IMG/VR virus record: IMGVR_UViG_3300028840_006907
Coordinates: 288,001 to 352,000 of that record
Length of the DNA: 64,000 nt
DNA from: a virus
Reading direction: 5' to 3' (one strand)
Shown: positions 12,152 through 37,842 of the stretch, piece by piece
Position numbering within the stretch: position 1 is the first letter of the stretch
How the letters are laid out: every line of letters starts with the position of its first letter
Notes under the pieces: generated by a model
What the model was told of the DNA's origin: nothing
Databases searched by the model: none
The model's input: only the letters and a program-made list of their open reading frames with translations
Position numbers and translations under genes: made by a program

Positions 12152-12154
12152 CTT

Positions 12155-17141: not shown

Positions 17142-17155
17142 TAGGAGGACGAAGT

Positions 17156-19052: not shown

Positions 19053-19055
19053 AAT

Positions 19056-21158: not shown

Positions 21159-21161
21159 TAA

Positions 21162-21737
21162 ATGAATTTATTTGAATCTGCGTACTATACTGAAGAGGAT
21201 CTGAGAAAAGGCGGTTTTAAAAGTGTCGGTAAAAATGTTCAGATTGATAAAAGTTGCACGATAATAGGCTTAGATAAAATCACTCTAGGAGATAATGTTC
21301 GAATCGATGGTTACTGTTGTATTATTGCCACAAAAGAGGAAGTGATTTTCGGTTCTTATATTCATATAGGTTCGTTTTGTCATCTCTGTGGAACTGCAGG
21401 TCTTATAATGAAAGATTTTTCAGGTTTGTCACAAGGAGTTCGAATTTACTCCTCTTCTGATGATTATTCAGGAAAGTTTTTAACTAATCCAACTGTTCCC
21501 GATAAATACACAGGTATAATAAGAGAACCAGTTATTATAGGTAAACATGTTATAATCGGGGCTAATACTGTTATTCTTCCAGGAGTTGTTATAGGTGATG
21601 GGTCAGCTATTGGTGCCATGTCCCTTGTAACAAAAGACGTAGATAAAAATAGTGTCTATGCAGGTTGTCCAGCGAAATTTATAAAAACACGTTCAAAAAG
21701 AATATTTGATTTAGAGAAGAGGTTATTAAATGAATAA
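21162..21737 (+). CDS. hexapeptide-repeat (LbH) acetyltransferase
   Basis: Left-handed beta-helix repeats IGANTVILPGVVIGDGSAIGAMSLV. Confidence 0.75.
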   Translation: MNLFESAYYTEEDLRKGGFKSVGKNVQIDKSCTIIGLDKITLGDNVRIDGYCCIIATKEEVIFGSYIHIGSFCHLCGTAGLIMKDFSGLSQGVRIYSSSDDYSGKFLTNPTVPDKYTGIIREPVIIGKHVIIGANTVILPGVVIGDGSAIGAMSLVTKDVDKNSVYAGCPAKFIKTRSKRIFDLEKRLLNE

Positions 21738-22443
21738 ATCAATTTTCATATGTTCAGGAGGTCGATGTGGTACACATTGGGTTCGGCCTATTCTTGCTCA
21801 GCTTTTAGATTTACAAACTGGGTTTGATTGGAAAGGATATAATCCAAATAAAATTCCCTTTAAAACAGAACCTGGAGCTATTTGGAAAATAAAGATGGTA
21901 GAAAAGAGAGAGCCAGGAGGAAGGATTTATTCAGGGCATATGCCAATTACAGAACTTCTACCTATTATCAGTTTAGTAAATATAATAATTCTTATAAGAG
22001 ATCCTAGAGATATGTGTGTTTCGGCTGCATATTATACTCCAGAAAGAAGAGTATTAACTCAAGAAGAATTTGAATCTAAATTTAATAATTTATTAATACA
22101 AGGAAGCCCGAATCCTGATTTTCATGAATCTTATATAGAAAGTAAGAATAAAATACCTCATTTTTTATTAAAATATGAAGATATGATTCATGATGATTAT
22201 GGCTCAATAGTTAAATTTTTAAATAATTCAGGTTATAAATTTGAAGAAGAAAAATTAAAATATGTACTTGATAAAAACTCATTCAAGAATTTATCAGGTG
22301 GACGAGAAGCCGGTGAGGAGGATAATACCGCTTTTTATAGAAAAGGTATTGTGGGTGATTGGGTAAATTATCTCTCTAATGGTTTACTTGAACAATATAC
22401 CGATAGGCATAAAACTTTGTTGGAAGAATGGGGGTATATGTAA
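21730..22443 (+). CDS. sulfotransferase
   Basis: 5'-PSB-like SGGRCGTHW, 3'-PB RDPRD, and C-terminal RKGIVGDWVN matching RKGxxGDWKN. Confidence 0.75.
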   Translation: MNKSIFICSGGRCGTHWVRPILAQLLDLQTGFDWKGYNPNKIPFKTEPGAIWKIKMVEKREPGGRIYSGHMPITELLPIISLVNIIILIRDPRDMCVSAAYYTPERRVLTQEEFESKFNNLLIQGSPNPDFHESYIESKNKIPHFLLKYEDMIHDDYGSIVKFLNNSGYKFEEEKLKYVLDKNSFKNLSGGREAGEEDNTAFYRKGIVGDWVNYLSNGLLEQYTDRHKTLLEEWGYM

Positions 22444-22444
22444 T

Positions 22445-23116
22445 ATGGAAGATTATTTTGAACAAATGGTAACAGTTTTTAAAAAGTACTTTAAAGAGTA
22501 TTATCGTAATGTATTCACAAATCAATCAGTGGAAACCTGTACAGGTATTTATAATCTTTGTAAAAAAGAAAATCCAGATCAAGTAGTGGAAATGGGAACC
22601 AATCATGGGGCTTCTACTCTTTCTATAGTAAAAGCACTGACTGATTTAGGGAAAGATTTGTCTATTATTACTTCAATTGATTTAGACCACGAGAAATGGA
22701 AGGCAACATTTAATATACAAAAAGAATTGATTAAAAAGTATGATTTAAATTTAGGAAAAGTAAAATTAATAACTCAAGATTTTAATTCAGTAGATCCTGT
22801 AGAAATAATTGACCCTGAAAAGAAAGTATTTATTTTTTATGATATGCATGATCATCGAGGCCCATGGTCACAGAGACTACTTGATTTATGGGTACCTTTA
22901 GTTAAGAATGGTGTCTTCTCTATTCATGATGTAACTCCTGTAAGTGAATCCTTTGAAATAGTTCAGGATAAAATTTCCCCTCGAACAAAGATACAGTATA
23001 AGAGTGGGCAGTATTTTGCAGGTTTCAATGAATGTTTTCGAATAATAAAATGGGCAAATACAAATAACATAAATATAGAGATATTTCCAGGAGGAGTATA
23101 TTTCAGAAATGGCTAA
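22445..23116 (+). CDS. putative class I methyltransferase (CmcI/TylF-like)
   Basis: ATG right after upstream stop; VVEMGTNHGAST resembles CmcI-type SAM-binding; weak. Confidence 0.35.
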   Translation: MEDYFEQMVTVFKKYFKEYYRNVFTNQSVETCTGIYNLCKKENPDQVVEMGTNHGASTLSIVKALTDLGKDLSIITSIDLDHEKWKATFNIQKELIKKYDLNLGKVKLITQDFNSVDPVEIIDPEKKVFIFYDMHDHRGPWSQRLLDLWVPLVKNGVFSIHDVTPVSESFEIVQDKISPRTKIQYKSGQYFAGFNECFRIIKWANTNNINIEIFPGGVYFRNG

Positions 23117-23795
23117 CATTTTTATTGGAAAAAATATGTCAAATATAAAAAATATTCCTGGTTTAAATAAAATAACAAAGATACATGATGTGGCTGATTA
23201 TGTGAGATTAGCTGATTTTGTCTATAAAACAATTTCCCATTCTATGGATAGTGGGATTGATTTAGATTATTCTGTTAATCAATTGTATTGGCAATTTGTG
23301 AATAAAAAGAGATTTGGATGGTGCTATATGCATGCTCTGTATTATCATCTTATAGTACAAGAATATGGTCGTGAATCTTTTGTTTATGATTATGGCTTAC
23401 CAGCGCCACAATTAACTCATAGTGTTGTTGTAGTAACTTTACGTGATGATAAGTATTTAATTGATCCTTATTTTAATCGTTATTATGTAACAGAAAAAGG
23501 GAATCCGTATACATTTCCTGACTTATTGGCTATGATAAAAACTGATCCAACAAAAATTTATAGTAAATATGGACCTGGTTTGAAAGAAGTTAAACAGGGA
23601 GATAAATATATAGAAACTTCTCCTGAACAATTTGAAAAAGGAGTATTGGAATCGTGGCGAGTAAATCAGAATTATGATAAAATAATGATGGAAAAATTTA
23701 ATAGCACAAATGCATTATTATTAATGCATTGTAAAGTACAAAAAGCTAAAGTATGTAAAAAAATAGATGGGACAAAGTATTTTGACTTTTTCTAA
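23109..23795 (+). CDS. hypothetical protein
   Basis: ORF in operon context; no motif recognised. Confidence 0.5.
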   Translation: MANIFIGKNMSNIKNIPGLNKITKIHDVADYVRLADFVYKTISHSMDSGIDLDYSVNQLYWQFVNKKRFGWCYMHALYYHLIVQEYGRESFVYDYGLPAPQLTHSVVVVTLRDDKYLIDPYFNRYYVTEKGNPYTFPDLLAMIKTDPTKIYSKYGPGLKEVKQGDKYIETSPEQFEKGVLESWRVNQNYDKIMMEKFNSTNALLLMHCKVQKAKVCKKIDGTKYFDFF

Positions 23796-24570
23796 TGTTA
23801 TATCCTTTATCAGTGCATTTAAAAAGTTTAAACCTCCTTATGGTATGATACAGCATTCTGCTATGTATTCATGGAATGCTAATAATATTGAAGTATTTGT
23901 TCCAGATAATGAGGTTGGAGTTAAAGATGCTTGTCAGAGTTATCCTAATATTAAATTAATCCCCGATGTTAAACGGGCTCGGGAAATGGGCTTTTCAAAT
24001 CAGTCTCCTATGGTAAAAGATCTGATTGCAAAAGCTCTACCTTTAATCAATACTCCGATGGTAGCTTTAATTAATTCAGACATTATAATTCAACCTGATT
24101 TTATAGAAAGAATAGAAAAAATACTGAAAGAATACGGTTTTGATATTTATATGGTGGGAACTCGATTTGATATTAAATTGGATATTCATATAAGTTCGGA
24201 AGAGACATATAAACAGGTATTGAGTTCAGAACGAAAAAGTTATGATGGCAGTACTTCTTCAGATATATTTATAGCTTCTAAATTTACCTGGAGGAAGATA
24301 GTTCATGAAATGCCTGATTTTATTCTAGGTCGGTATGGGTGGGATAATTGGTTACATATGATTGCAGAACTTAAAGGATATCGTAAATTTAATTGTACAG
24401 ATGCTTTGACTATTCTTCATTGTGAGCATGATCATAAGCATATAGTTCTTCAGGAAAAGGCTGAAAAACAAAGTGCTCCAAGTTCACAGCATAATTTAAA
24501 GTTATGGAATGAAGTAAAAAATGTTTATGGGACGACCAGGATAAATGCATGGCCAAAAATTGAAATATAA
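23767..24570 (+). CDS. hypothetical protein
   Basis: ORF in operon context; start uncertain. Confidence 0.5.
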   Translation: MGQSILTFSNVISFISAFKKFKPPYGMIQHSAMYSWNANNIEVFVPDNEVGVKDACQSYPNIKLIPDVKRAREMGFSNQSPMVKDLIAKALPLINTPMVALINSDIIIQPDFIERIEKILKEYGFDIYMVGTRFDIKLDIHISSEETYKQVLSSERKSYDGSTSSDIFIASKFTWRKIVHEMPDFILGRYGWDNWLHMIAELKGYRKFNCTDALTILHCEHDHKHIVLQEKAEKQSAPSSQHNLKLWNEVKNVYGTTRINAWPKIEI

Positions 24571-24661
24571 TAGGGGTAAAGAAGTTTCTCTACCCCTACA
24601 TGCACATTTTAACCACAATCCCATCTTATGGCTAAAAATATAATAAAAGGATGATACAAGA

Positions 24662-25480
24662 ATGAACCTTCTTCAGAGAGTAAAAAAATATTGGGATGAT
24701 AGACCCTGTAATATACGCCATTCAAAGGAACCCGTTGGAACCAGAAATTATTTCAATGAGGTTGAATATAAAAAATATAAAGTTGAACCGCATATATCAG
24801 GTTTCGCTGATTTTAATAAATGGAAGGATAAAAAGGTCCTTGAGATAGGCTGTGGGCTGGGCACTGAGACTATAAATTTTGCTAGAGCTGGTGCTAGGGT
24901 TGTCGCTGTGGATATGTCTGAGAAATCTTTGGAGCTGGCTAAGAAACGAGCGGAAGTTTTTGGCTTGTCCGATAAGATTACATTTTATCAGGGAAATGCT
25001 GAAGAACTTGATAAATTTATCCCAGCTCAGAAATTTGATCTTATCTGGTCTTTTGGTGTTATTCATCATACCCCGAATCCTGAGAACGTTATTGAATGTA
25101 TCAAGAAGTACCTGTCTCCAAGCAGTGAATTACGAATGATGGTTTATAATAAATTTAGTTGGAAAGTATTCTGGATCCTTTTTAAGTACGGGAAGTTTAA
25201 GTTTTGGGATATTGATAAATTCATAGCTCAAAATTCAGAAGCTCAGACCGGGTGCCCAATCACCTACACTTATACAAATAAATCAGTTCAAAAATTACTA
25301 AAAGGGTTTGTAATCGATAATATTAAAATTGAGCATATTTTTCCTTATAAAATTCGTGAATATAAGGAGAATAAATTCAAATTTATCTGGTATTTTAGAT
25401 ACCTGCCCAAATGGTTTTTTCATTGGTTAGAAAAGAGAATCGGTTGGCATATGTGCATAATCGCCAGATGGAGAATTTAG
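24662..25480 (+). CDS. class I SAM-dependent methyltransferase
   Basis: VLEIGCGLGTETINFARAGARVVAVDMSE motif I/II; RBS AAGGA upstream. Confidence 0.8.
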   Translation: MNLLQRVKKYWDDRPCNIRHSKEPVGTRNYFNEVEYKKYKVEPHISGFADFNKWKDKKVLEIGCGLGTETINFARAGARVVAVDMSEKSLELAKKRAEVFGLSDKITFYQGNAEELDKFIPAQKFDLIWSFGVIHHTPNPENVIECIKKYLSPSSELRMMVYNKFSWKVFWILFKYGKFKFWDIDKFIAQNSEAQTGCPITYTYTNKSVQKLLKGFVIDNIKIEHIFPYKIREYKENKFKFIWYFRYLPKWFFHWLEKRIGWHMCIIARWRI

Positions 25481-26195: not shown

Positions 26196-26963
26196 ATGAT
26201 AGATGCGAAAAGAGTCGTTTTTTCATACTTAAATTTAAAAGTTGCCAAAGATATGACACCAGAAGAGGCAAAGAAAATAGTGGATAAAATGCCTCCAGGA
26301 AGATTTGATAAAATTAAAAAATTGTTACAGCCTTTTGCTAGATTGTTTAAAAAATCTTTTAATGTAAGAGATGCTGGTGTCCTTGATACTTTAGGAAAAT
26401 TAAGTAGGGCTAAGGGAATTCCTCTTGTTGAATTGTTAGCAGTAGCTTCTATCATGTTTGGTGCTACTGTTCCGTCTTATGCTGACACTGCTAAAGAAAA
26501 AGCTCCAATAGTTCAAGTAAAAGAGAAAAGGCCCATTTCTGAGGTAAGAGCGGATCTAGAAAAAGTTTTTGAATTACCAAAAGGTTTAATGACTCTTGTA
26601 AAAGTTACTCCTCAATTAGCAATAAATTTAAAAGGTATAGATGGATTTGTAGAGACCGTGGGTAAAAATCTCGATAAGAGTATAACTCCTGAAGTTTCAG
26701 TATTGTTAAATCAAGTCCCAGATAATCAATGGCCTGAATTATTGTCTGGTTTAGTAATGCAGAAAATTCAAGAAGATGATAAAGTTGATAAGAAATTTAA
26801 AAAGTTTATTAAACACCATAAAACTAGCCCTCAAAATATGAAAAAAGAGATAGCAAAAGTTGTCTCACAAGAGAAATCTGGCATTCAAAAATTTGTTGAT
26901 AAAGGCATGGCTGAGAAGGGCCTAGCTAAAAAAGCCCATGAAAGAGGCTATTTAATTTCATAA
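26196..26963 (+). CDS. hypothetical protein
   Basis: RBS-like GGGG upstream; Lys-rich protein-like composition; preferred over overlapping antisense ORF 26132-26455. Confidence 0.5.
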   Translation: MIDAKRVVFSYLNLKVAKDMTPEEAKKIVDKMPPGRFDKIKKLLQPFARLFKKSFNVRDAGVLDTLGKLSRAKGIPLVELLAVASIMFGATVPSYADTAKEKAPIVQVKEKRPISEVRADLEKVFELPKGLMTLVKVTPQLAINLKGIDGFVETVGKNLDKSITPEVSVLLNQVPDNQWPELLSGLVMQKIQEDDKVDKKFKKFIKHHKTSPQNMKKEIAKVVSQEKSGIQKFVDKGMAEKGLAKKAHERGYLIS

Positions 26964-27496
26964 ATAGCTGTCTTTGTAGTTTTCATACCGAAAAGTTTAA
27001 ATGGATATTTCCCTAAAAACAATTCTATTGCATCTTGGTATACGTATTCTACAGGATTTTGAAGAATTATAATTCCTCCTTTTCTCACTTTTGGAACAGC
27101 CTCTTTGATACAAGAAGATCTTGATCTACCATTTATGAAAATGATATCAAAAGAATGATCAGCAAAGTTATTTATATAATTTACATAGTCTCTAAAATTC
27201 TTATATAAATAAGCCGGTACAGTACTTCCGAAGCTCTCATGGCTGTAAGGAAAGGGTTTAGGGTCATCGATAGGTTCTATTAATTCATAAGTAAAATTTC
27301 CTTTATTAGGTCCTATCTGTTTTTTTAATGTCTCATATGTTTCTCTGTCATGTTCCACTGATACTACAGCTTTAACAGTTCTTCTGAAATAAATAGTAGA
27401 ATCTCCTGATCCATATTCAAAAGTGATCATGTCATATTCAATGAAACTTTTTAACCAGTCTATAGCTTCAGGTTCAATTGGGGGGTAAACTTCCAT
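26948..27496 (-). CDS. putative class I methyltransferase-like protein
   Basis: EYGSGDSTIYF (motif I-like) and FDIIFINGRS; weak. Confidence 0.4.
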   Translation of the reverse strand: MEVYPPIEPEAIDWLKSFIEYDMITFEYGSGDSTIYFRRTVKAVVSVEHDRETYETLKKQIGPNKGNFTYELIEPIDDPKPFPYSHESFGSTVPAYLYKNFRDYVNYINNFADHSFDIIFINGRSRSSCIKEAVPKVRKGGIIILQNPVEYVYQDAIELFLGKYPFKLFGMKTTKTAIYEIK

Positions 27497-27856
27497 TTAT
27501 TCTTCCTCTATTCTTTTTAGTCCAATATTTCCAAGTTCTTCATCATTAAGTTTTTCTAATTTTATATGTTCATTCATGATAATTACATAAAATGGAATAT
27601 CAATAGATGATTGAAAGATGTCAATTAAATCTTGTGCTTGTGCCTCGGTAACAGGCATTTTAGGTCTTATAATGACAAGATCATCTTCTTTCAATTGTAA
27701 CTTTTCTAATTGGTAATTTATAACGATGTTTTCTACATATTGTTCAGCTACCTCTTTTGGATTGTGGCTCAAAGTATATCCGCATTTGTCACATTTGCCT
27801 GTATAAAAATCGATAGCTTCATCTCTACATTCAGGGCATTCTATTTTTTTATCCAT
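27497..27856 (-). CDS. zinc-ribbon hypothetical protein
   Basis: CPECRDEAIDFYTGKCDKCG Cys4 cluster. Confidence 0.5.
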   Translation of the reverse strand: MDKKIECPECRDEAIDFYTGKCDKCGYTLSHNPKEVAEQYVENIVINYQLEKLQLKEDDLVIIRPKMPVTEAQAQDLIDIFQSSIDIPFYVIIMNEHIKLEKLNDEELGNIGLKRIEEE

Positions 27857-27858: not shown

Positions 27859-28485
27859 CTAAAATTTCCTTTCTACAGTATCTTTGAATTTAATCATTTT
27901 CCCAGTTCCGGTTCCTATGTGAGGAAAAGGAGTTTCAAATTCATATTTAATGACACATTTTGGCCAAGTCATGGTTGATTTTCCTCTTCTTTGTACTTTT
28001 GTTGTTGTCACACTTCTATTGTTATCTTCTATAATGAATGTGCAAGGTAAATCCCAACCATCTACATAACGAACAGCTTCATAAAAATGTCCTTCATCTT
28101 CAGCTCCATCTCCAATAAAACACCATACTTTATTTTTGCTTTTCTCCATTTTTAAAGATAAGGCTATTCCGGTAGCTATAGAAGCGGTTCCTGCTAGTAT
28201 AGAAGATGACAGGAAATTTAATTTTTTATCGAAGACATGCATTGAATCCCCGTTTAATAATATCTTTTCAAGATCTTTTTCATTTCCTCCTGCTAGTAAA
28301 TAATGGTAGTGGGATCGATGGGTAGAAAGAATATAATCTCCTTCATTAACTTTTTTGAATATTTCAATAATTTGATCTTCATTTCCTCCATTTAAATATA
28401 TCAAATAAGGAAGAAGCCCTTCTTCAAAGAGTTCAATTACTCTCTTTTCAAAAGAGATAAGTTCATTTTTTGTTTTATTAAACAT
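27859..28485 (-). CDS. thiamine-diphosphate-dependent enzyme, transketolase N-terminal / E1-alpha-like subunit
   Basis: TPP-binding motif GDGAEDEGHFYEA and upstream STHRSH; short split subunit. Confidence 0.55.
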   Translation of the reverse strand: MFNKTKNELISFEKRVIELFEEGLLPYLIYLNGGNEDQIIEIFKKVNEGDYILSTHRSHYHYLLAGGNEKDLEKILLNGDSMHVFDKKLNFLSSSILAGTASIATGIALSLKMEKSKNKVWCFIGDGAEDEGHFYEAVRYVDGWDLPCTFIIEDNNRSVTTTKVQRRGKSTMTWPKCVIKYEFETPFPHIGTGTGKMIKFKDTVERKF

Positions 28486-29545
28486 AGTTATCTCCGTAAC
28501 ATTCTATTATTTGATGTATTATCTTATTTTTTGCCTCATTAGCACATTGATGTGTACAAGATATGTCAGGTCTAAAATTTTGAAAGAAATTTTCTGTATC
28601 TCGTGAGAACCAGGTTTCACTGAATTTTTTATTTTTAATGGATCCTACCAATCCTTTTGGAGAATAAGCCATATTGTGACAAGTATAGATATTGAGATCA
28701 GCTCCAATTACAGGTACTATTAACGAGAAGAAACATTTTTTGTATTCTCTTTTATTTACCATAGGAGATATATTGTAACTGTCAAAAACATCAATACCTT
28801 CAATTTGACTAGCATATATAGTATCCAATTGTTCTCTTACTTGATATTTAATGGTATTGTGATAGTTATAAAAATCAGGAACCCACACCGGGGAGAATCG
28901 TATATTATCTACACCCATTTTATGTACAAGTTGAAAAGCTTCTATTAAGAATTCACAATTTTCTTTTGTTATGATATAGTTGACCCCGAGATTACAGGAA
29001 CTTTCTTTTTTTGAAAAGTTAAGAACATTTTCTACTATTTGATGAAACATTTTAGGGGATGCTTTTCTCGATTCGATAAAACTTTTTTCATCCCAGTAAT
29101 CGATAGAAACTCTAATCCATTTAGCATGAGTCATAATATCAGCTATGTTTCCACTGAGGAATTGACCATTTGTTAATATGGAAAGATCTATTTTACACTC
29201 AAGAGTTTTTTCAAGTATTTTCTCAATACCTTTATGAATTAATGGCTCTCCTCCACCAGAATAGGTAATAGCTTTAACACCAATGTCTTGAAGATCCTCT
29301 AATATTTCCATCATCTTTTCTGTGGGAATTTCATCCACTCTTTTCATATCGTCATGCATTTTAGAAAAGGAATAGTTGTACACACAGAAGTAACAATTAT
29401 GACAACATCTATTGGTAGGTTTTATTCTGACATAGATAGGAGAAGTTACAACATCATTTCGAAACGATTTCAATTTATCAGGAAACCACACTATTTTATA
29501 GTTGTTGTATTTATTATTCATTGTCATAGAAACCTCGTGTTTCAA
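28478..29545 (-). CDS. radical SAM enzyme
   Basis: CxxxCxxC cluster in CCHNCYFC near N-terminus; glycine-rich SAM region YSGGGEP. Confidence 0.85.
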   Translation of the reverse strand: MKHEVSMTMNNKYNNYKIVWFPDKLKSFRNDVVTSPIYVRIKPTNRCCHNCYFCVYNYSFSKMHDDMKRVDEIPTEKMMEILEDLQDIGVKAITYSGGGEPLIHKGIEKILEKTLECKIDLSILTNGQFLSGNIADIMTHAKWIRVSIDYWDEKSFIESRKASPKMFHQIVENVLNFSKKESSCNLGVNYIITKENCEFLIEAFQLVHKMGVDNIRFSPVWVPDFYNYHNTIKYQVREQLDTIYASQIEGIDVFDSYNISPMVNKREYKKCFFSLIVPVIGADLNIYTCHNMAYSPKGLVGSIKNKKFSETWFSRDTENFFQNFRPDISCTHQCANEAKNKIIHQIIECYGDNYV

Positions 29546-30038
29546 TTAGCATCATAGAGGTTTCCCATTTTGCTGCCTCTTTATAATGGTATAAAATTTC
29601 TTCTGAGTTATTTAATCTGATAACAGGAAAATCTACCATTTTCGATACAGCTTCAGTATGGTCCTGGACATGAGTTATGCAACTATATAAAGGTTTTTCT
29701 TTTTTCCCAATGACAACTCTTATAATCACTTTAGGATCGTAATCACCGTTTGACATAACTTTTATTTTGTCTAAATGATTTACTATTGAATCTAGTGCAT
29801 TTAAAACAAAATCAAATCGTTCAAAATAAACAATTGGTTTGTATCCTCTGATGCTCATTCCTATGGCCATTCCTGCCATTAAGTTCTCGGCTACAGGTGT
29901 TTCGATTAATTGAGATTCCGGAACATCAATTAAGGTATTAGCTGCTCTAGTGTATTTTGTATTATATCCTATAAATACTGTTTTTTCTTGTTTAGCCAAT
30001 TCATTCATCGAGTATTTAAGAGCATCTATATATCGCAT
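29514..30038 (-). CDS. transketolase C-terminal / E1-beta-like subunit
   Basis: ETPVAENLMAGMAIGMSIRGYKPIVYFERFDF resembles pyrimidine-binding domain of split transketolases. Confidence 0.5.
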   Translation of the reverse strand: MRYIDALKYSMNELAKQEKTVFIGYNTKYTRAANTLIDVPESQLIETPVAENLMAGMAIGMSIRGYKPIVYFERFDFVLNALDSIVNHLDKIKVMSNGDYDPKVIIRVVIGKKEKPLYSCITHVQDHTEAVSKMVDFPVIRLNNSEEILYHYKEAAKWETSMMLIETRGFYDNE

Positions 30039-30656
30039 CTATTTAACCTTTTCTTTTGGTGTAATAATCAGATAACCTTGGTCTCGGTAATCTTTTGTGA
30101 CATCGTGTGTCTCTTTAAACATTTCAACAATGTAATTAGTACCATTTAAACCGTATTTAGGTCTGAAGTATCTGTAACGTGCTATTAAATTACCTGTTTC
30201 AAATGGCCCATCTTCATGATGATTTAGATCATCAATAATCATGACGTCTTTACCTTTTCGATATTTTTTTATCATTTCGAGTTCTAAGTTTAAAGGAAAT
30301 TTCAATCTTTTTGGAAGATCTTCATCATAGTGATGTCCATCTATCTGAAAGTCAGCTCCGGGAAAATGAGCATCTAAAAAGAAAAGAACTACATCAGTTT
30401 CTTTAACTTCATTTTTAAATAGTGATTCGAGTCCTACTGGAGATTCACAATTCAAAAAATTAATTCGTGGGTCTACAATATTTTTTGAGGTTTCATTGAA
30501 AAGTTTTTCGATAATTTCAATAGAGTGTATTTTTTCAAAAGGAAATCCTAATGCATATGTTACTCCTTCTCCTTTTCCCGTACCTGTCTCTATCATAATA
30601 TTGCATCCGTAATCTCTGATATACTCATCAAGTTTATGCTTGTTTAGAGTTCCCAT
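30039..30656 (-). CDS. putative methyltransferase-like protein (paralogue of 32001-32615)
   Basis: IETGTGKGEG and FFLDAHFPGADF shared with paralogue. Confidence 0.4.
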   Translation of the reverse strand: MGTLNKHKLDEYIRDYGCNIMIETGTGKGEGVTYALGFPFEKIHSIEIIEKLFNETSKNIVDPRINFLNCESPVGLESLFKNEVKETDVVLFFLDAHFPGADFQIDGHHYDEDLPKRLKFPLNLELEMIKKYRKGKDVMIIDDLNHHEDGPFETGNLIARYRYFRPKYGLNGTNYIVEMFKETHDVTKDYRDQGYLIITPKEKVK

Positions 30657-31513
30657 TATATTTCCCTTTGGTTAAAGTTTGGTGTATAAAATTGTTGAAT
30701 CGCTTTATAATCATGTGGTAAAAAGTATTTCTTTATCCATGTATATGTAGGCATTCTATTGTAGATATTTTGATCATGAGTTTTTATGAATAATTTATGA
30801 GGAGGAAGTACTTTACAACATAAAATAGCACAGAAAGAATCGCACCCAACATAATAACCTGCGTATTTTGACAGGGCTATTATTGAAGTTAAAGGAATGT
30901 CTTTTGGGGCTATGAAATGATTTAAAGTAGGTGCAACAGGTGTGTCTGAAATAATGAGAACCTTTAAGCCAGTCTTTATTGACAGGTTATTTATAAATTC
31001 CCAATCATCATTATTGATAACCGCTATATCACTTCGTGGTCTTGAAGAGGTTGGATAGTGCATTAAGATATATTTAAAAGGTTCTATTTTTAATCCATTC
31101 CAATCAATATCATCAACACTAGCGCTCATTAAAAATGATGACCCTTGAAAAGTTCTATTGGTATCCATTATCATTGGTACCATGTCTACGGGACGTACAT
31201 CATCTTCAGGTTTTATATTAAGTAATTCTTTTCCTATTGTGTAATCAGGTTCGATGTCAGATCTAAAATGCCAGAAGGTATCTTTTATCGGGCTAGATTG
31301 AAAGGTCCTTCTCATATTTTTTCTACCTACTTCTTCATCTATGAAGTGATGCTTTTTTACTCTGTAATAGATATTATGATCAATTATAGGAGCTATGCAT
31401 TTCCCAAATCTGCATGGCCAGTATATTTCAGTTATAGATTCTCTTTCTTTTTGAGTCATTAAAGCATCGATACACATCATATCTCCGATGCCGACAGAGA
31501 AGTAAATTTTCAT
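30656..31513 (-). CDS. hypothetical protein (possible GT-B-type glycosyltransferase)
   Basis: N-terminal GIGD motif as in 32624 ORF; weak. Confidence 0.45.
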   Translation of the reverse strand: MKIYFSVGIGDMMCIDALMTQKERESITEIYWPCRFGKCIAPIIDHNIYYRVKKHHFIDEEVGRKNMRRTFQSSPIKDTFWHFRSDIEPDYTIGKELLNIKPEDDVRPVDMVPMIMDTNRTFQGSSFLMSASVDDIDWNGLKIEPFKYILMHYPTSSRPRSDIAVINNDDWEFINNLSIKTGLKVLIISDTPVAPTLNHFIAPKDIPLTSIIALSKYAGYYVGCDSFCAILCCKVLPPHKLFIKTHDQNIYNRMPTYTWIKKYFLPHDYKAIQQFYTPNFNQREI

Positions 31514-32001
31514 TATTTTTCTCCAAAAATCATAAATGAGTGAAATAGGTCCCTTTCGGAAGCATAAATATTTTTATAGCCTTTGTTTTTCATGTAATCT
31601 TGGATAATTTTAGGTGTAAAGATATGCCTATGTTTTCTATTGTTCCATGGCCTCCAATATTCTTGTTCATAATGAGGAAGGTATAAGAACAATATCCCTC
31701 CTTCTTTTAAAATTTCATACCAATAATCCATGGCATCTATCCAGTTTTCGATATGTTCTAAGCAATGACTTGAGAAGACATAATCGACATCTTTCTTTGG
31801 TAAATTTAAAGCATGATACCCATCATCGAAGATTAGGTCAATAGGAATAGCTCCAGGTAAAGCCCAGGATCCTTTTCTGCATCCTATGTCATAACCTGTA
31901 CCTTTACATAATTGTTGGGCATAAGGTATAGCGAATTTGGCTGCATAACCTTCTGCTTGAAAATGGGGGTAAAATTTATTATTGAATTCTATTAATTCCA
32001 T
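31513..32001 (-). CDS. class I SAM-dependent methyltransferase
   Basis: GYDIGCRKG motif I and VFSSHCLEHI ... LKEGGILFL. Confidence 0.65.
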   Translation of the reverse strand: MELIEFNNKFYPHFQAEGYAAKFAIPYAQQLCKGTGYDIGCRKGSWALPGAIPIDLIFDDGYHALNLPKKDVDYVFSSHCLEHIENWIDAMDYWYEILKEGGILFLYLPHYEQEYWRPWNNRKHRHIFTPKIIQDYMKNKGYKNIYASERDLFHSFMIFGEK

Positions 32002-32615
32002 TATTCCTCTCGTTTTGGTGTTATTATCATATATCCTTGTGATTGGAAATCTCTAGTAAGAGAATGTGTCTTTCCGAATGCATCAAAAAGGAATTTTGAT
32101 CCGGAGGTAGGAGATATTTCATGGGCTAAAGTATTCGGTCCATCTGTAAAGGGGCCACTCTCATAAAGGCGTAAATCATCAGTTATAATTATATCATTTG
32201 TGACATCTTTTAAAGATGTGATTACTTCTACTTCTTTCTCACATGGGAGTCTCGTATTATAATCAGGTTCACTATTATAATAGGTATAATGGAAGTCAGC
32301 TCCTGGGAAATGAGCATCTAAAAAGAACAGTGTGTTGCCTTTCAAGTCCTTTATGATTTCGGGCAGAATTTTAAATGAGTTACCGTGATAAATTTTACAA
32401 TTTTTCCCTTTTTCTTTTGATAGAGCATCAAATTTTTTTACTGCTTTTTTATATATCTGATCATAAATCTCTATTGAATAAAAATTTTCAAAGGAATAAT
32501 TTAATGCATATTCCAAGCAATCACCTTCACCGGTACCAGTTTCAACATAATTTTTGAGGTTAAACGATTTAATCCATTTTTCCATTTCTGTAATAACTTG
32601 ATTTATGTGTCCCAT
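32001..32615 (-). CDS. putative methyltransferase-like protein (paralogue of 30039-30656)
   Basis: VETGTGEGDC and FFLDAHFPGADF. Confidence 0.4.
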   Translation of the reverse strand: MGHINQVITEMEKWIKSFNLKNYVETGTGEGDCLEYALNYSFENFYSIEIYDQIYKKAVKKFDALSKEKGKNCKIYHGNSFKILPEIIKDLKGNTLFFLDAHFPGADFHYTYYNSEPDYNTRLPCEKEVEVITSLKDVTNDIIITDDLRLYESGPFTDGPNTLAHEISPTSGSKFLFDAFGKTHSLTRDFQSQGYMIITPKREE

Positions 32616-32623: not shown

Positions 32624-33286
32624 TTATCTATAATTGTAATTGACTTTGAATAAGTCTTTGAGGTGGTAATAGTTCTTTGGTCCCCATCTTGAAAAGAGAT
32701 CAATCTTTTTTGCCTTTAAAGTAAGCTTTTCCATTATGTAATTAAACACTGTATCGATTAATTGAATCTCTTCAGCATTTTCAATTACTTTGGACCAATC
32801 AATTACATTAAAACCTTCATAAAGAGTATTATCTATTATTCTTAAATTAGTGGTAATTGGTATGGGAAAACATTTACTATGAGGAGGAGTACCATAATGA
32901 ATATTTCTAAAGACATATCTCTCATTATCTTTTAAACCTAGTATTTTATAATAAAGTTCATTTTCTTTCTTAGGGAATCTTTTAAAATTAAAGTAATTGG
33001 TCCAATCCCTGTGATCCAGTCCTACTAATTTATACTTTCCTTCCATGATAGGACCTGGAATTATTTGATCCGCATTTTGTAGATCTACATAGAGGTCTAT
33101 ATTATCGGGTTGGCCAAGAGGTACGAATTCGACTCCTGGGCTTATGAGGTAATCATTATACCATAAAAATTCTTTTCTGACGGGCCATTTTACTTGATAG
33201 CCTTGGTGCACAAAGTGCTGACCAATTTTTTGACAGAAAAAGACATCTCCAATGCCAGCCGGTTGATTTATTACGCATAGTTTCAT
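32624..33286 (-). CDS. hypothetical protein
   Basis: ORF in operon; N-terminal PAGIGDVFF motif. Confidence 0.45.
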   Translation of the reverse strand: MKLCVINQPAGIGDVFFCQKIGQHFVHQGYQVKWPVRKEFLWYNDYLISPGVEFVPLGQPDNIDLYVDLQNADQIIPGPIMEGKYKLVGLDHRDWTNYFNFKRFPKKENELYYKILGLKDNERYVFRNIHYGTPPHSKCFPIPITTNLRIIDNTLYEGFNVIDWSKVIENAEEIQLIDTVFNYIMEKLTLKAKKIDLFSRWGPKNYYHLKDLFKVNYNYR

Positions 33287-34090
33287 TTATCCAATAATAT
33301 CCTTTAAGTATTTGTCGTATAAGATATCTTCAATTATGTCATACTGTAAGGCAATTTTGAAATTATTCTCAATATATTCCATCAAGGAATAATACAATTC
33401 AGGGGATAAATCCGATACATCAAAGTCATCTTTTAATGTTATGATACCACGACTATCAAAAAACTCTCCTACATCGGGACTCCCATGATATACTGGAACT
33501 GTACCAGTAGTAAAACAGTCCAATATTTTTTCAGTCCAGTAAGTTTCATATTGTGAATTTTCAATTGTAACGGAGAACATGTAATCTACCAGAGCAATTT
33601 CTTTTTTCTCTATTTCATTAAACCCTCTGCCGTAAAGATCTAATTTATCTCTTAATTTATTTACCCATGCTAGTCTGAAATTATGGCCAGCACACATCCT
33701 TTTAGCAGAACTCATCATTGAGGCTAATTTAGTCTTCTTATAAATTTTAGGTTCCTTTATCCAGTACCCGTGAGAGGTGATGTAATGGAAATTATCTGCA
33801 AGGCTGTAGATTCTTTTGTCATGGGTAAATAGGAGAGGATAGGATTCTGAAATTTCTTTTGCATGGGCTATTATGTTGTCTATTACATTAGGAATAATTG
33901 AACTGGATTCTACTACCCAGGCAATTTTATTCGTTTTATTATTTATGTTCGGAACTATTTGTTCATCTACGAAAAAAGTCAGATCTTCTTGTTTACCTTT
34001 AGACCAATCAAAGTACGTAGGTTTTTTCCATAGTGTAGAAGAATAAGCATGTTGGAACCAACCACCTATAAGTCCTATTTTCTTTTTCAT
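33287..34090 (-). CDS. putative fucosyltransferase-like glycosyltransferase (GT10-like)
   Basis: YMFSVTIENSQYETYWTEKILDCFTTGTVPVYHG resembles the GT10 alpha-1,3-fucosyltransferase motif (FENS...YxTEK...G.VPVV). Confidence 0.5.
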   Translation of the reverse strand: MKKKIGLIGGWFQHAYSSTLWKKPTYFDWSKGKQEDLTFFVDEQIVPNINNKTNKIAWVVESSSIIPNVIDNIIAHAKEISESYPLLFTHDKRIYSLADNFHYITSHGYWIKEPKIYKKTKLASMMSSAKRMCAGHNFRLAWVNKLRDKLDLYGRGFNEIEKKEIALVDYMFSVTIENSQYETYWTEKILDCFTTGTVPVYHGSPDVGEFFDSRGIITLKDDFDVSDLSPELYYSLMEYIENNFKIALQYDIIEDILYDKYLKDIIG

Positions 34091-34710
34091 TACAGACCGC
34101 CCTTGATATAGAATGCATCACCCCATGTCCCTCCATCCCATGTGGTCTCAGCTCTTTCAAAACCGTATTTTGAAAGGAAAGAATCCAACTCAGTTACCAT
34201 GCAACAATTTTCATAGACTTGATCACGATTTACTTCAGCAATGATATAGTCAATCTTTCTTAATGTCTCTGTGCCCCCTTTAAAAACTTCCAGCTCAAAT
34301 CCCTGGACATCAATATTAATGAGGTTGCTAAAATCAGAAAAATAAAAGTTGTCTAATTTTTCTACTCTTATCTCATCCGATTCTTCAAACTTAATATGTG
34401 GGTACTGTCTTAAATGTATCAGTGGTTTTAATAAGGAGCTAGATTCTCCTTGATTGGATGATTTATAGAAAGTCTTAAAACATTCTTCCGGACCTAAAGC
34501 AATGTTATAAATTCTTACTCTAGAGTCGTCTTTGATATTCTCGTATAGTACTTTAAAGGAATCTGGATCGGGTTCGAAAAAGTTCATCTCTTTTATTGAA
34601 TCATATTTTATATAAATTTTATATTCTTCCCCATAATGGGCTCCTATATGAATGATCCCAGTAACATTCATGTCGTATTTGTTTATTAATCTATCGAAAT
34701 CAAGTAGCAT
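34090..34710 (-). CDS. FkbM-family methyltransferase-like protein
   Basis: GIIHIGAHYGEE resembles FkbM motif; weak. Confidence 0.45.
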   Translation of the reverse strand: MLLDFDRLINKYDMNVTGIIHIGAHYGEEYKIYIKYDSIKEMNFFEPDPDSFKVLYENIKDDSRVRIYNIALGPEECFKTFYKSSNQGESSSLLKPLIHLRQYPHIKFEESDEIRVEKLDNFYFSDFSNLINIDVQGFELEVFKGGTETLRKIDYIIAEVNRDQVYENCCMVTELDSFLSKYGFERAETTWDGGTWGDAFYIKGGL

Positions 34711-36765
34711 TTAATCCTCCCACTTAAGTTCAATCTCTTGATGTGGGGAAATATTTTTTACCCCTTTAATATTTCTGATAGATAGTTTACGGCCTTCCAA
34801 ATATTTCTGATTAAATTCTCCTGCTGAAATATTACCATGTCTGTTAGGGTAAGCTCCAACAAGATTTACAGGTATATTAACAATTTTAGATTCGTCATAA
34901 CAGAGCATCATAGGTCTTTCTGGAATCTGTTTCATAAGAGCATCTTCGAAAGTATTAGGATTGTTATAGGTACCGTTTTTTATTGCACTCATTAAATCAG
35001 GTGTACGATAGATATTTCCATCAACACTCATGGGATACCCCCAATCCCCGGCATAATTTTTCCATTCCCATTTATTTTCTGAAGAAAGATCGGGAGGCGG
35101 AGATGGTATGTTTTGGGGATAACAGAAATTGATCCTAGAGCATAATCTCAAAGAGATGCTTAAGATCTCATCTGGATTTAATTTGTCAAAGTCATTTCTT
35201 AATTTGTACGGTTCTTTGAATACAATGTCATCAACTAAAAACATTGTATATTCTTTTTCGGTATTTACAGCATTTATAACTGAATCTTTAAAATCATTAG
35301 TTTGTTTATAAAAGTAGAATCCTGGATGATCTGAGATAACTTTATCATAACCAGCTTTAAAATCATCGTTACTGTATGTCCATATAATAGTTATTTTGAA
35401 TTCGTACCAGTTTTCCCAAAGTTCCTTTATACTTCTTAATAATAAATCTAGTTGACATGCCCGATCTTTACTGAAAATAACAACATTCATATTTTTTAGT
35501 CTTTTATAGGGAGGTCTTTGGAAGATCCCATGAGCACAGTCCCTCTGTGTAGACCCTCTTTTATGGTCATTGACATCACTTTCAGTATTATAGATGTAGT
35601 TAAATGAAGTTAATAATTTAGCGTGTGAAGGACCTGCCATTTCGAGCATGGGTATCATGAATGACAAATCTCCTGCCATATGCCAGAAAGTGTCACCAGA
35701 GATAAAATCTCTTTTATCTATTTTTCTAAACAGCCATGTTTTAAAGGTCCTTAAATGAGTGGCTCTCCAGTCGGTGGTTTTTCTGAGAAGGTCCCAATTG
35801 GGCATTTTTGCCCATCCATCTCGTTCACCTCTTCCATTATATTCTCTAAATTGTCCGAATGAGATCCAGGTATCCGGGTCTTTATAAGCTTCAAGGACTC
35901 TTTCAAAAACCTTATTGTCATCTGGTAGCCAGTCATCTCCATCAATATTTATACAAATATCTTGATTATTAATTTCGGGTCTATGTAAAGTATGATAATA
36001 ATTTCCGCTGACATATCTTTTTTCGGTATTATTTATAATAACAAATCGATCATCTCCGTAAGTATGCCTTTCAATAAAATCAAGACTGTTATCTGTAGAT
36101 AGGTCATTACAGATATAACATTTCCAGTTTCTTACTGATTGGTTTTTTATACTGTTGATACATCGGATAATGTATTTACCTGCATTCCAACATGGAGTGA
36201 CAATTCGTAATGTATTTTTTTCTTCTTGATATTCTTGTAACACTTTGACTTCAGGTTTGGTCTCTTCTTTTTGGATACTCTTTTTTCGAACAACAATTTC
36301 GAAGGACCATTCTCCGTACATTTTTAAGTCGTAACGTTCATGATGGATAAGTTCTACACCACCTATTTTTTGAAGAATTTCCCAGAGATCTTCCCAGCCA
36401 AAATGATGGATATGTTTTTTGTTACATCTTGGATCATCTAATGGATGATAATATTCTTTGTCTACTTGGTAGAGGACTAGATATCCATCATCTTTGAGTA
36501 TTCTGAGCCACTCTCTGAGGGTTGCTTCGGTATCATATATTTCTTCCAATAAATGACTGGAATAGACATAATCAAAATGTTTATCAGGGTAGCAGGGCAT
36601 GAGACGGGCGTCTATGGGCATGTCTGCGAAAGGACTTAAAAGATCTATCCCTATAGCATCAATTTTTATTTTTGTATTACCACAGCCTAAGTCAACTCCT
36701 TGACCTTGACAGTATTTGAGTAATCTATTTCTGCAATTATCTGTTTCTCCTTTATGTCTTTCCAT
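34711..36765 (-). CDS. multidomain methyltransferase-glycosyltransferase (class I MT / GT2 / C-terminal GT-A-like)
   Basis: N-terminal GVDLGCGN ... LKDDGYLVLY; central GT2 RIVTPCWNAGKYI...CNDLSTDNS; C-terminal region with FLVDDIVF. Confidence 0.8.
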   Translation of the reverse strand: MERHKGETDNCRNRLLKYCQGQGVDLGCGNTKIKIDAIGIDLLSPFADMPIDARLMPCYPDKHFDYVYSSHLLEEIYDTEATLREWLRILKDDGYLVLYQVDKEYYHPLDDPRCNKKHIHHFGWEDLWEILQKIGGVELIHHERYDLKMYGEWSFEIVVRKKSIQKEETKPEVKVLQEYQEEKNTLRIVTPCWNAGKYIIRCINSIKNQSVRNWKCYICNDLSTDNSLDFIERHTYGDDRFVIINNTEKRYVSGNYYHTLHRPEINNQDICINIDGDDWLPDDNKVFERVLEAYKDPDTWISFGQFREYNGRGERDGWAKMPNWDLLRKTTDWRATHLRTFKTWLFRKIDKRDFISGDTFWHMAGDLSFMIPMLEMAGPSHAKLLTSFNYIYNTESDVNDHKRGSTQRDCAHGIFQRPPYKRLKNMNVVIFSKDRACQLDLLLRSIKELWENWYEFKITIIWTYSNDDFKAGYDKVISDHPGFYFYKQTNDFKDSVINAVNTEKEYTMFLVDDIVFKEPYKLRNDFDKLNPDEILSISLRLCSRINFCYPQNIPSPPPDLSSENKWEWKNYAGDWGYPMSVDGNIYRTPDLMSAIKNGTYNNPNTFEDALMKQIPERPMMLCYDESKIVNIPVNLVGAYPNRHGNISAGEFNQKYLEGRKLSIRNIKGVKNISPHQEIELKWED

Positions 36766-37344: not shown

Positions 37345-37842
37345 TCACTCTGTCCTTGTTATGTTGTAAACTTCAGTTTTTATCTTATCTAATTTTTTAA
37401 GAGTATCTTTTAAATTTTTCTCTATATCAAAGATTTCTTTCACAAATACTTCACTAGCGTTATATTGACCTTTTTTTATTTGCATTATAGCTATTTGTCT
37501 ATGTTCCGGTTCTGAAAGTACAAGAACGGTATTATCAGGAATTTTTCTTGAAATTATAACAGTAGCTCCCCACATATAACCCATAATACCATTTCTTATA
37601 GATTCTTTTCTTGTCTCCATATCAATTGAATCTTTACAAAATTTTCTAATATCAACATAAGATCTAGAATTCATTAAAACTTCATTTACTCTATTTTCAT
37701 GTTTTTCTATTTCTGCAAATCCATCAGCTAAAATATCGGGTATAAAATTAGGAATAGGGCTTTTAATAATTTTCCTAATATTTAATGACTTGATGAATTC
37801 TTCATATTCTATGTCTTTTAATTCTTTCGATAGGTATGCCAC
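37345..37842 (-). CDS. hypothetical protein
   Basis: ORF in operon. Confidence 0.5.
   Translation of the reverse strand: MAYLSKELKDIEYEEFIKSLNIRKIIKSPIPNFIPDILADGFAEIEKHENRVNEVLMNSRSYVDIRKFCKDSIDMETRKESIRNGIMGYMWGATVIISRKIPDNTVLVLSEPEHRQIAIMQIKKGQYNASEVFVKEIFDIEKNLKDTLKKLDKIKTEVYNITRTE

Follow-up and report, generated by a model that had tools for sequence, protein, structure and literature searches.

We analysed a 64,000-nucleotide stretch of viral DNA (positions 288,001 to 352,000 of the IMG/VR record IMGVR_UViG_3300028840_006907; hereafter the window), in which three overlapping minus-strand genes encode a radical S-adenosylmethionine (SAM) enzyme between the two subunits of a thiamine-diphosphate enzyme. 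The gene for the E1-beta-like pyrimidine-binding (Pyr) subunit (beta; 29514–30038, 174 aa; Pfam Transket_pyr, NCBIfam NF006667) is followed by that for the radical SAM enzyme (28478–29527, 349 aa from an ATG, with a CxxxCxxC motif and a four-cysteine, twitch-type auxiliary-cluster motif) and by that for the E1-alpha-like diphosphate-binding (PP) subunit (alpha; 27859–28485, 208 aa; PF00676 (E1_dh), with a GDG...NN motif). The open reading frame (ORF) of the radical SAM enzyme runs up to a TTG at 29545 (28478–29545, 355 aa). A database protein of identical sequence, P0001, has 349 aa and begins at the ATG at 29527, and the N-termini across the radical SAM family match this start. The overlap between the beta and radical SAM genes is 14 nt if translation starts at the ATG and 32 nt if it starts at the TTG, and that between the radical SAM and alpha genes is 8 nt (ATGTTTAA). 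An earlier annotation made from the letters alone, which we call the sequence-only reading, had placed three overlapping ORFs at these positions inside an operon rich in methyltransferases and glycosyltransferases. The ORFs are all there, and the surrounding minus-strand block at 26.9–39.8 kb indeed contains many glycosyltransferases (GT2 and GT10-like) and methyltransferases (FkbM, Methyltransf_23 and others).

The source of the window is most likely a huge phage. Its GC content is about 32%, it encodes a Mom-like/HNH fusion and proteins with weak similarities to tail and tail-fibre proteins, and contigs as long as 469,617 bp encode a protein identical to its radical SAM enzyme. In GenBank, the nearest relative is LR756501, an uncultured phage of 735 kb, which has the same three genes in the same order, with 62% identity for alpha and 51% for the radical SAM enzyme. 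No near-identical DNA was found among GenBank phages, and a search of IMG/VR gave no exact match.

The beta subunit matches Transket_pyr with 28.2 bits (cut-off 27) and the NCBIfam model for the pyruvate dehydrogenase (PDH) E1-beta subunit, NF006667, with 61 bits (cut-off 321) over profile positions 6–172 of 327, and its alignment to human E1-beta is limited to residues 5–176. Two residues are invariant, the cofactor-activating Glu (in IETPVAEN) and the active-site His (in THxQD), and they align with IDTPISE and QHSQ, respectively, of the human protein. The alpha subunit scores 70.7 bits with E1_dh and 93 bits with TIGR03182 (PDH E1-alpha; cut-off 393.85), the latter over positions 16–181 of 315, and its alignment to human E1-alpha spans residues 50–216 only. 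The thiamine-diphosphate motif of alpha, GDGAEDEGHFYEA...EDNN, agrees with the E1 cofactor pattern GDG(X)~25NN (here GDGAEDEG...EDNN), and GDG...NN is invariant. Absent are the C-terminal domain of beta and the C-terminal third of alpha. At 174 and 208 aa, the subunits are far shorter than a full-length E1 (alpha of about 315–370 aa, beta of about 325 aa with an E2-binding domain), and neither reaches the curated score for its E1 family. In E1 structures, the C-terminal domain of beta and the C-terminal third of alpha serve E2 binding and lipoyl-domain chemistry. No match to E2 or E3 domains (lipoyl, 2-oxoacid_dh, Pyr_redox) was found in the window ORFs of at least 400 aa or in the flanking genes, and the related loci examined have none either. 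Judged by these alignments, the 208-aa and 174-aa proteins are the diphosphate- and pyrimidine-binding halves of a predicted minimal, catalytically intact E1-type thiamine-diphosphate enzyme. A genuine PDH or acetoin-dehydrogenase E1 is ruled out by the truncation, the sub-threshold scores and the absence of E2/E3 domains from the window ORFs of at least 400 aa. The sequence-only reading had set such a dehydrogenase, with E2 and E3 partners nearby, against its own proposal of a split transketolase-like pair; the former was not found, and the latter gives way to an E1-like pair, in which the 174-aa protein is not a transketolase C-terminal domain, as it had been labelled, but the pyrimidine-binding domain of E1-beta.

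Related proteins exist in both split and fused forms. The N-terminal half (7–202) of phrog_34187, which has 405 positions and is annotated as of unknown function, corresponds to alpha and its C-terminal half (237–404) to beta. An exhaustive HMMER search for alpha-like proteins returned 61 representatives at E ≤ 1e-30, and the matches listed are mostly of about 200 aa (split), with several of about 400 aa (fused). Some alpha-like homologues carry additional regions. An intein is located at the GDG cofactor motif of P0209, the N-terminal regions of P0217 and P0197 resemble, by eye, homing-endonuclease or zinc-finger domains, and the 552-aa P0151 has its alpha-like domain at residues 354–544, after an N-terminal region of about 350 aa in which an aminoglycoside-phosphotransferase (APH)-like kinase motif can be seen by eye.

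The radical SAM enzyme matches PF04055 (Radical_SAM) with 62.8 bits (cut-off 29.5), and its cluster-binding motif is CCHNCYFC with C41, C45 and C48 invariant, which confirms the earlier assignment to the CxxxCxxC group. More than 1,600 homologues were found. Toward the C-terminus, C265, C283, C324 and C328 are invariant in 69 of 69 aligned database homologues; in a set of 92 unique viral sequences, the first two of these show no exception, and the last two are found in 91. The seven-cysteine motif of SPASM proteins is not present, as the conserved cysteines comprise these four and, in the core, only C178, and PF13186 does not match the window protein, with weak matches in some homologues. The spacing is C-x17-C-x40-C-x3-C, of which the interval between the first two cysteines is presumably the same as that of BtrN. 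The four cysteines are a twitch-type motif for one predicted, fully ligated auxiliary cluster, so the search for a second Fe-S cluster that had been suggested from the sequence gave a positive answer.

None of the 56 NCBIfam matches of the radical SAM enzyme comes near its cut-off. The top match is the tungsten-cofactor maturase TIGR04317 (89 bits, cut-off 380), MoaA scores 56 against 325 and viperin (NF038283) 54 against 180, and the scores for NirJ and BlsE are also low. With scores so far under the cut-offs, the identities of MoaA, NirJ, viperin, PqqE and the tungsten-cofactor maturase were excluded. A prokaryotic viperin (pVip) was rejected for its viperin score and for the presence of the four-cysteine auxiliary motif, and the PADLOC pVip match covers only core residues 38–196. 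On the evidence of these profiles, the enzyme belongs to no curated family, and the housekeeping identity that the sequence-only reading had weighed against its proposal did not appear. BtrN, anSME, DesII and BlsE share with the window enzyme the CxxxCxxC motif and a C-terminal motif for an auxiliary [4Fe-4S] cluster, whereas the identity to them is only 13–19% and the window enzyme is longer than BtrN (349 versus about 250 aa). The nearest folds are DesII, SkfB and BlsE, with DesII and BlsE within the top three.

These scores also bear on the simplest explanation of the locus, that a phage captured housekeeping genes for a PDH or acetoin-dehydrogenase E1 and for a MoaA-, NirJ- or viperin-type radical SAM enzyme. 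The top database names are indeed PDH E1 alpha and beta, and the MoaA and viperin models match the radical SAM core. However, we consider this explanation practically negligible in view of the scores (93/394 and 61/321 for the subunits, 56/325 for MoaA and 54/180 for viperin), the truncated subunits, the lack of E2/E3 domains in the larger window ORFs and the distribution of the family, which is almost confined to viral contigs.

This distribution was examined in 599 pattern-matched IMG/VR stretches and in 185,579 species-representative genomes. An alpha-like protein is encoded in at least 547 of the former and at at least 4 loci in the latter. The cassette is typical of phages, which inverts the earlier remark that it would be unusual if the locus were viral. 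Gene architectures were compared in the best 80 viral loci and others, a sample biased towards relatives of the query, after a crude dereplication at 85% identity for alpha clusters and 80% for radical SAM clusters. Two architectures were found. In the first, split alpha and beta genes adjoin a radical SAM gene, most commonly in the order X, beta, radical SAM, alpha, where X is a further gene described below. In the second, a fused alpha-beta gene adjoins a gene for a Zn-dependent alcohol dehydrogenase (Zn-ADH) of the medium-chain dehydrogenase/reductase (MDR) superfamily, without a radical SAM gene of the window's family. Of 35 alpha clusters, the radical SAM partner occurs in about 19, the Zn-ADH partner in about 16 and both together in none, and all loci with neither partner are cut by the contig end.

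A search seeded with the radical SAM enzyme gave 75 further viral loci. Wherever at least 1.5 kb of sequence was available on each side, a split thiamine pair was found within 5 kb (56 of 56 loci; 50 E1-like and 6 transketolase-like), and the link is kept in all 18 radical SAM clusters after dereplication. The transketolase-type pair consists of Transketolase_N and Transket_pyr subunits, is also without the C-terminal domain, and is about 20% identical to the E1-like alpha. The radical SAM and thiamine genes thus co-occur obligatorily, and they do so across two thiamine lineages. The arrangement of the trio in the window is not due to chance, as these three genes adjoin one another in all related radical SAM loci that no contig end cuts.

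Individual loci show further variation. The transketolase-type split pairs stand beside the radical SAM family in L011 (9001–12053), L097 (10001–13321), L101 and L122, with Transketolase_N subunits of 214–242 aa and Transket_pyr subunits of 158–166 aa, and the radical SAM family members of L097 and L011 show 46–53% identity. Two tandem radical SAM genes, a SPASM-annotated paralogue and a family member, lie between or beside the thiamine subunits in L014/L096 (8936–11059), L092 and L095, and in L096 a short-chain dehydrogenase/reductase (SDR) gene of the nucleoside-diphosphate (NDP)-sugar type is inserted between the beta and radical SAM genes. The radical SAM homologue of L012 (7157–9280), a 199-kb viral contig, has an intein of about 355 aa directly after CxxxCxxC. 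The radical SAM gene in L064, a locus of the ADH class, was excluded as a family member, being a distant SPASM paralogue of 19–24% identity.

In a neighbour-joining tree of alpha without support values, the fused proteins of the ADH class form one clade. L053, with the gene order f12, Zn-ADH, beta, alpha (f12 being an uncharacterised family described below), is placed among sequences of the radical SAM class, beside L003/LR756501 with the order f12, beta, radical SAM, alpha, which suggests that the partner was exchanged at least once while the rest of the locus stayed similar. L053 (8429–14386 of a 194-kb viral contig) contains two alpha/beta pairs. One is the Zn-ADH, beta, alpha set, and the other is deep-branching and has the alpha-beta order, with genes for an RXYLT1-like protein and a kinase in between. 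Loci of the ADH class usually also encode a kinase like RfaE domain I (131 bits) and a short SDR and frequently adjoin capsid genes, and the Zn-ADH of this class is closest to class III and primary-alcohol dehydrogenases. The idea that the thiamine enzyme is dedicated to supplying low-potential electrons to the radical SAM enzyme was rejected, since the thiamine enzyme occurs without a radical SAM enzyme in this class.

The same class bears on the proposal that the radical SAM enzyme serves to mature a protein or peptide, with the thiamine enzyme or a virion protein as its target. A radical SAM maturase, TIGR04317, is the top NCBIfam match at 89 bits, and SkfB, SuiB, anSME and PqqE are among the close folds. 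Nevertheless, all of these scores are far under the cut-offs, no precursor-peptide gene or recognition element for ribosomally synthesised and post-translationally modified peptides was seen, the fused thiamine enzymes of the ADH class work without a radical SAM enzyme, and the genes conserved around the cassette encode sugar enzymes, which together make a maturase very improbable.

True homologues of the window pair, with about 50% identity, are found in the cyanophages S-SM2 (SSM2_198) and P-TIM68 (AIR93527, 'transketolase central region-containing protein'). In these phages the halves are fused as alpha-beta and the partners are a Zn-ADH and a heptose-type kinase, whereas the window has split genes in the order beta, radical SAM, alpha. 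The fused enzymes lie in sugar clusters with the heptose-type kinase, nucleotidyltransferases, an isomerase and epimerases, and five families are common to the window and S-SM2: the GT10-like glycosyltransferase, those of 32001–32615 and 32624–33286, the thiamine enzyme and that of 30656–31513.

Upstream of the trio, the minus-strand block continues with genes for a 205-aa protein (30039–30656) that directly precedes beta, has an ETGTGxG methyltransferase-like motif and no Pfam match, and is a paralogue (35% identity) of the protein at 32001–32615; a 285-aa protein (30656–31513) with no Pfam or NCBIfam match and 42% identity to SSM2_199, the product of the gene directly after the fused thiamine enzyme in S-SM2; a 162-aa class I SAM methyltransferase (31513–32001; Methyltransf_23, 47 bits); and a 204-aa methyltransferase-like protein (32001–32615; weak Methyltransf_4) with a phmmer match to S-SM2 SSM2_194. 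The next gene (32624–33286) encodes the 220-aa window member of the f12 family, which is 36% identical to SSM2_195. None of the 164 homologues in this family has a Pfam domain, and its members stand directly upstream of beta in L003, L007, L014 and L053. It is followed by genes for a GT10 (fucosyltransferase-like) glycosyltransferase (33287–34090; Glyco_transf_10, 38 bits), whose homologue SSM2_193 has the same domain; an FkbM-family methyltransferase (34090–34710; Methyltransf_21, 64.8 bits), a family also found beside the cassette in L004, L006, L010 and L096; and a 684-aa methyltransferase-GT2 fusion (34711–36765; Methyltransf_11/23 and Glycos_transf_2, 70 bits) with a C-terminal region without assigned function. 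Three small minus-strand paralogues with a W-G/K-x-x-[IV] core (37345–37842, 38393–38731 and 38722–39081) lie between glycosyltransferase genes; those of 112 and 119 aa are 30% identical (E 4e-11), and the match of the 165-aa protein is weaker. Downstream of alpha, a 119-aa protein (27497–27856, minus strand) has an N-terminal CxxC...CxxC zinc-ribbon-like motif and no family match. Its only homologue among the compared loci is in L009, the JGI copy of the same phage, which places it outside the wider cassette. The last gene of the block (26948–27496, minus strand) encodes a 182-aa methyltransferase-like protein (weak Methyltransf_24, E 0.006) and is followed by a terminator-like hairpin at 26949–26933, in a scan for promoters and terminators that overall performed no better than on shuffled sequence.

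Position X of the commonest order is held in 8 of 18 radical SAM clusters by a protein of about 255 aa (unk256) that has no Pfam match and is absent from the window, and in 5 of 18 by the f12 family. The model of unk256 has a predicted local distance difference test (pLDDT) score of 95, and its top 24 Foldseek matches in the Protein Data Bank (PDB) are all GT9 proteins (WaaC, WaaF, TibC, 3tov). From the fold only, unk256 is probably a GT9 heptosyltransferase-fold (GT-B) protein, and the commonest viral cassette includes this GT9-fold protein. It accompanies E1-type and transketolase-type cassettes alike, and a GT9-like protein is also present in L097 and L122. The window proteins at 32624–33286 and 30656–31513 share with GT9-like proteins only an N-terminal G[IL]GD motif, and comparison with GT9/unk256 gave no significant relationship (hhalign probabilities of 3–10%), even with a 36-sequence profile, and no PDB match. 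The protein at 30039–30656 was excluded as an equivalent of unk256, as hhalign showed no relationship.

Further recurrent neighbours of the cassette are NDP-sugar SDRs, TylC3-like C-methyltransferases, B12-radical SAM enzymes, and FkbM or Methyltransf_24 methyltransferases. The cassette in a metagenome-assembled genome of the Methylococcaceae is directly followed by genes for RmlA, RmlB, an RmlC-like protein and a C-methyltransferase, and in LR756501 and vent phages C-methyltransferases and SDRs stand beside it. In the window and in related loci, the E1-like pair lies inside a cluster for sugar biosynthesis or transfer. These conserved sugar-enzyme neighbours back the view of the sequence-only reading that the thiamine pair and the radical SAM enzyme form one unit in a glycan cluster. 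With respect to the branched or C-modified sugar proposed there, they support the involvement of a sugar, and the branch itself is inferred.

By analogy with known enzymes, we propose, with a probability of roughly 40%, that the trio works as a single module for tailoring a sugar in the phage, with oxidation of a hydroxyl group of the sugar by the radical SAM enzyme and addition of a two-carbon unit by the thiamine enzyme. In the first step, the radical SAM enzyme would take a hydrogen atom from a carbinol of the sugar, probably of a nucleotide-activated sugar, and the second electron would go to the auxiliary cluster, so that the alcohol becomes a ketone or an aldehyde; BtrN, anSME and the dehydrogenase activity of DesII are the models for this step. 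In the second step, the thiamine enzyme would decarboxylate a 2-oxoacid, most simply pyruvate, and join the resulting two-carbon acyl-anion equivalent to the new carbonyl, giving a C-branched or chain-extended sugar. Neighbouring glycosyltransferases would then attach the sugar, which the many methyltransferases would decorate, to a final acceptor for which a virion protein, a host envelope glycan and phage DNA are candidates.

Several observations argue for this proposal. The genes are interleaved and overlapping, and the link between them holds across the E1-like and transketolase-like lineages. The catalytic residues of the thiamine enzyme are kept while the complex-forming parts are lost, which counts in favour of a sugar module. 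The division of the alpha clusters into about 19 with a radical SAM enzyme, about 16 with a Zn-ADH and none with both points to the thiamine enzyme as the constant, C-C-bond-forming step and to the redox partner as the variable one. Since oxidation of an alcohol to a carbonyl is the sole reaction known for both partner families, the variable partner would be the supplier of the carbonyl. In related aminoglycoside pathways, one and the same step is catalysed by Zn-dependent NeoA and by radical SAM BtrN. DesII and BlsE, two of the best structural neighbours, act on nucleotide sugars, and the invariant auxiliary-cluster cysteines, the sugar-enzyme neighbours and the suggested partner swap between L053 and L003 also speak for the proposal. 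A net two-electron oxidation would be in keeping with a fully ligated auxiliary cluster, and BtrN, anSME and AtsB are radical SAM dehydrogenases with auxiliary clusters (PMC2996862). The addition of the two-carbon unit of pyruvate to keto sugars by E1-like pairs is established for paulomycin and proposed for trioxacarcin (PMC4802897, PMC5659172). Among the candidate acceptors, DNA has a precedent in phages that place heptose and 3-deoxy-D-manno-octulosonic acid (Kdo) on 5-hydroxymethylcytosine DNA (bioRxiv 10.1101/2023.12.21.572611).

The closest known parallels to the thiamine enzyme are AviB1/AviB2, Plm8/Plm9, TxnB3/TxnB4 and KstD7/KstD8, PDH-E1-like pairs that put a two-carbon branch from pyruvate on NDP-deoxysugars and that, like the window pair, are two-subunit E1-type enzymes encoded in sugar clusters without E2 or E3. 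Acyl-anion transfer to a sugar carbonyl is presumed for the AviB1/B2-type pairs and, by analogy, for the window pair (PMC4802897, PMC5659172). The two types differ in size, as TxnB3/TxnB4 have 327 and 345 aa (PMC5659172) against 208 and 174 aa in the window, which is about 120–170 residues shorter. By comparison with the published description, the window pair has lost the C-terminal domain of beta and the C-terminal third of alpha. The AviB1/B2 type is from actinomycetes, whereas the window type is viral and obligatorily tied to a radical SAM enzyme or a Zn-ADH. A looser parallel is found in yersiniose biosynthesis, where, as described at its citation in PMC4802897, YerE/YerF combine a thiamine-dependent two-carbon branch on a keto sugar with a redox enzyme. 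YerE, however, is an acetolactate-synthase-type single polypeptide with an FAD domain, and it has neither an E1-type split nor a radical SAM partner. In kind, the module would thus combine AviB1/B2-type branching enzymes with a sugar-acting radical SAM enzyme, yet by its scores and lengths it falls outside both PDH E1 and the full-length branching pairs.

Other observations weigh against the proposal of oxidation followed by carboligation. The substrate, the donor and the order of steps are inferred for every family member. Radical SAM and Zn-ADH may exclude each other because they belong to separate pathways and not because their steps are equivalent; the ADH class usually has its own kinase and SDR as well as a fused thiamine enzyme, and its Zn-ADH could equally reduce the product instead. 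The alpha tree behind the partner swap is a neighbour-joining tree that carries no support values. The likeness to DesII and BlsE, with TM scores of about 0.65, is generic for the SPASM/twitch group, and the peptide maturases SkfB and SuiB are equally close. The fusion of P0151 to an APH-like kinase region hints that some relatives act on free sugars, with phosphorylation coming later, and not on NDP-sugars. Finally, no nucleotidyltransferase was found within 8 kb of most viral cassettes, from which it follows that a host-made activated sugar is probably used.

The order of the two steps could also be reversed within the same module, with the acetyl branch added to a pre-existing keto sugar, for example the 4-keto-6-deoxy sugar that a 4,6-dehydratase makes, and with later tailoring of the branched product by the radical SAM enzyme through epimerisation, rearrangement or oxidative cyclisation; in the ADH class, the Zn-ADH would reduce the acetyl branch to a hydroxyethyl group, as in yersiniose A. 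NDP-sugar SDRs of the 4,6-dehydratase type, which could provide such a keto acceptor, are encoded in the window and, in several other loci, close to the cassette, the ADH class holds two reductase-type enzymes, and the actinomycete pathways obtain the keto acceptor from a standard pathway with no extra oxidase (PMC4802897, PMC5659172). This order would, however, leave unexplained why radical SAM and Zn-ADH do not co-occur and why L053 and L003 differ in their partners. Moreover, no SDR or dehydratase is found within 8 kb of most minimal viral cassettes, and auxiliary clusters with cysteine as every ligand are typical of net oxidations. We therefore regard the reversed order as unlikely, though deserving of serious consideration.

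A different use of the thiamine enzyme, for mere decarboxylation of a sugar 2-oxoacid (Kdo-, 3-deoxy-D-arabino-heptulosonate 7-phosphate (DAHP)- or nonulosonate-like), would give a 2-deoxy-aldose one carbon shorter, whose aldehyde would be processed by the Zn-ADH or the radical SAM enzyme as in an Ehrlich-type decarboxylase-dehydrogenase pair. E1-type enzymes do use 2-oxoacids, the Zn-ADH is nearest to class III and primary-alcohol dehydrogenases, a NeuB-type nonulosonate pathway lies 10 kb away in the window, and the kinase and nucleotidyltransferase genes that follow the thiamine enzyme in the cyanophages would fit activation after the skeleton is made. On the other hand, the probes used detected no nucleotidyltransferase or other sugar-activating gene in the 8 kb around 18 dereplicated loci, and NeuB and KdsA, which these 8-kb probes did not include, are absent from the Pfam-annotated contexts examined. 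Simple decarboxylation would also leave the radical SAM enzyme without a role, and the transketolase-type pairs of 6 loci fit ketol or acyl-anion transfer better. We think that this pathway has little chance of being the correct one.

The close association of the genes allows for a more radical proposal, in which a composite enzyme, made up of the radical SAM enzyme and the thiamine heterodimer, would carry out a natural radical acylation at an unactivated C-H bond of the sugar, with no keto intermediate. The 5'-deoxyadenosyl radical would generate a sugar radical that couples with the thiamine-bound enamine (Breslow) intermediate or, in a variant, the sugar radical and the enamine would exchange electrons through the four-cysteine auxiliary cluster. 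Behind this idea are the interleaving and overlap of the genes, their association in both thiamine lineages and a cluster suited to electron relay. To our knowledge, such chemistry has so far been met only in radical intermediates of the pyruvate:ferredoxin oxidoreductase (PFOR) type and in engineered photoredox thiamine enzymes. We consider the composite enzyme and either version of its chemistry a long shot.

Outside the minus-strand block, the window encodes a second set of sugar enzymes. Plus-strand genes at 8931–25480 make up a phage pathway of the nonulosonic-acid type (pseudaminic/legionaminic-like), with a UDP-sugar dehydrogenase, an SDR epimerase, a nucleotidyltransferase, a formyltransferase, a PIG-L deacetylase, a 4,6-dehydratase, a DegT aminotransferase, a NeuB synthase, a CMP-transferase, a hexapeptide acetyltransferase, a sulfotransferase and several methyltransferases. 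A phage-made formylated or sulfated nonulosonate would be of interest in its own right. Upstream of this pathway, a 994-aa triple fusion of GT2, GT1/GT4 and class I methyltransferase domains (4336–7320, plus strand) and a thymidylate kinase (7546–8247, plus strand) are encoded; elsewhere in the window are genes for a rhodanese-domain protein (47967–48536, plus strand) and for an 835-aa protein (53409–55916, minus strand) with DUF7487, homing/HNH-endonuclease-like regions, a Mom-like DNA-modification domain and a C-terminal helix-turn-helix. Genes are on the plus strand up to about 25.5 kb, on the minus strand at 25.6–39.8 kb and on the plus strand again thereafter, and GC skew and AT skew flip sign at about 26000 and 40000, exactly at these switches of orientation. 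No tRNA genes were found within the 64-kb window.

Full-text literature searches for a pairing of radical SAM and thiamine enzymes acting on sugars returned nothing relevant, and there seems to be no earlier description of an obligatory partnership between a twitch radical SAM enzyme and a minimal thiamine carboligase. The split enzyme, with about 380 residues, is among the smallest E1-type thiamine enzymes and may serve as a carboligase scaffold. The apparent alternation of radical SAM enzyme and Zn-ADH leads to a sharp, testable prediction of the role of the radical SAM enzyme. If oxidation followed by two-carbon addition is correct, the trio would represent a widespread, phage-typical module for making C-branched or chain-extended sugars, present on hundreds of viral contigs from huge to small phages, and it would add to the glycan chemistry that viruses are known to encode, be it for virions, for host surfaces or for DNA.

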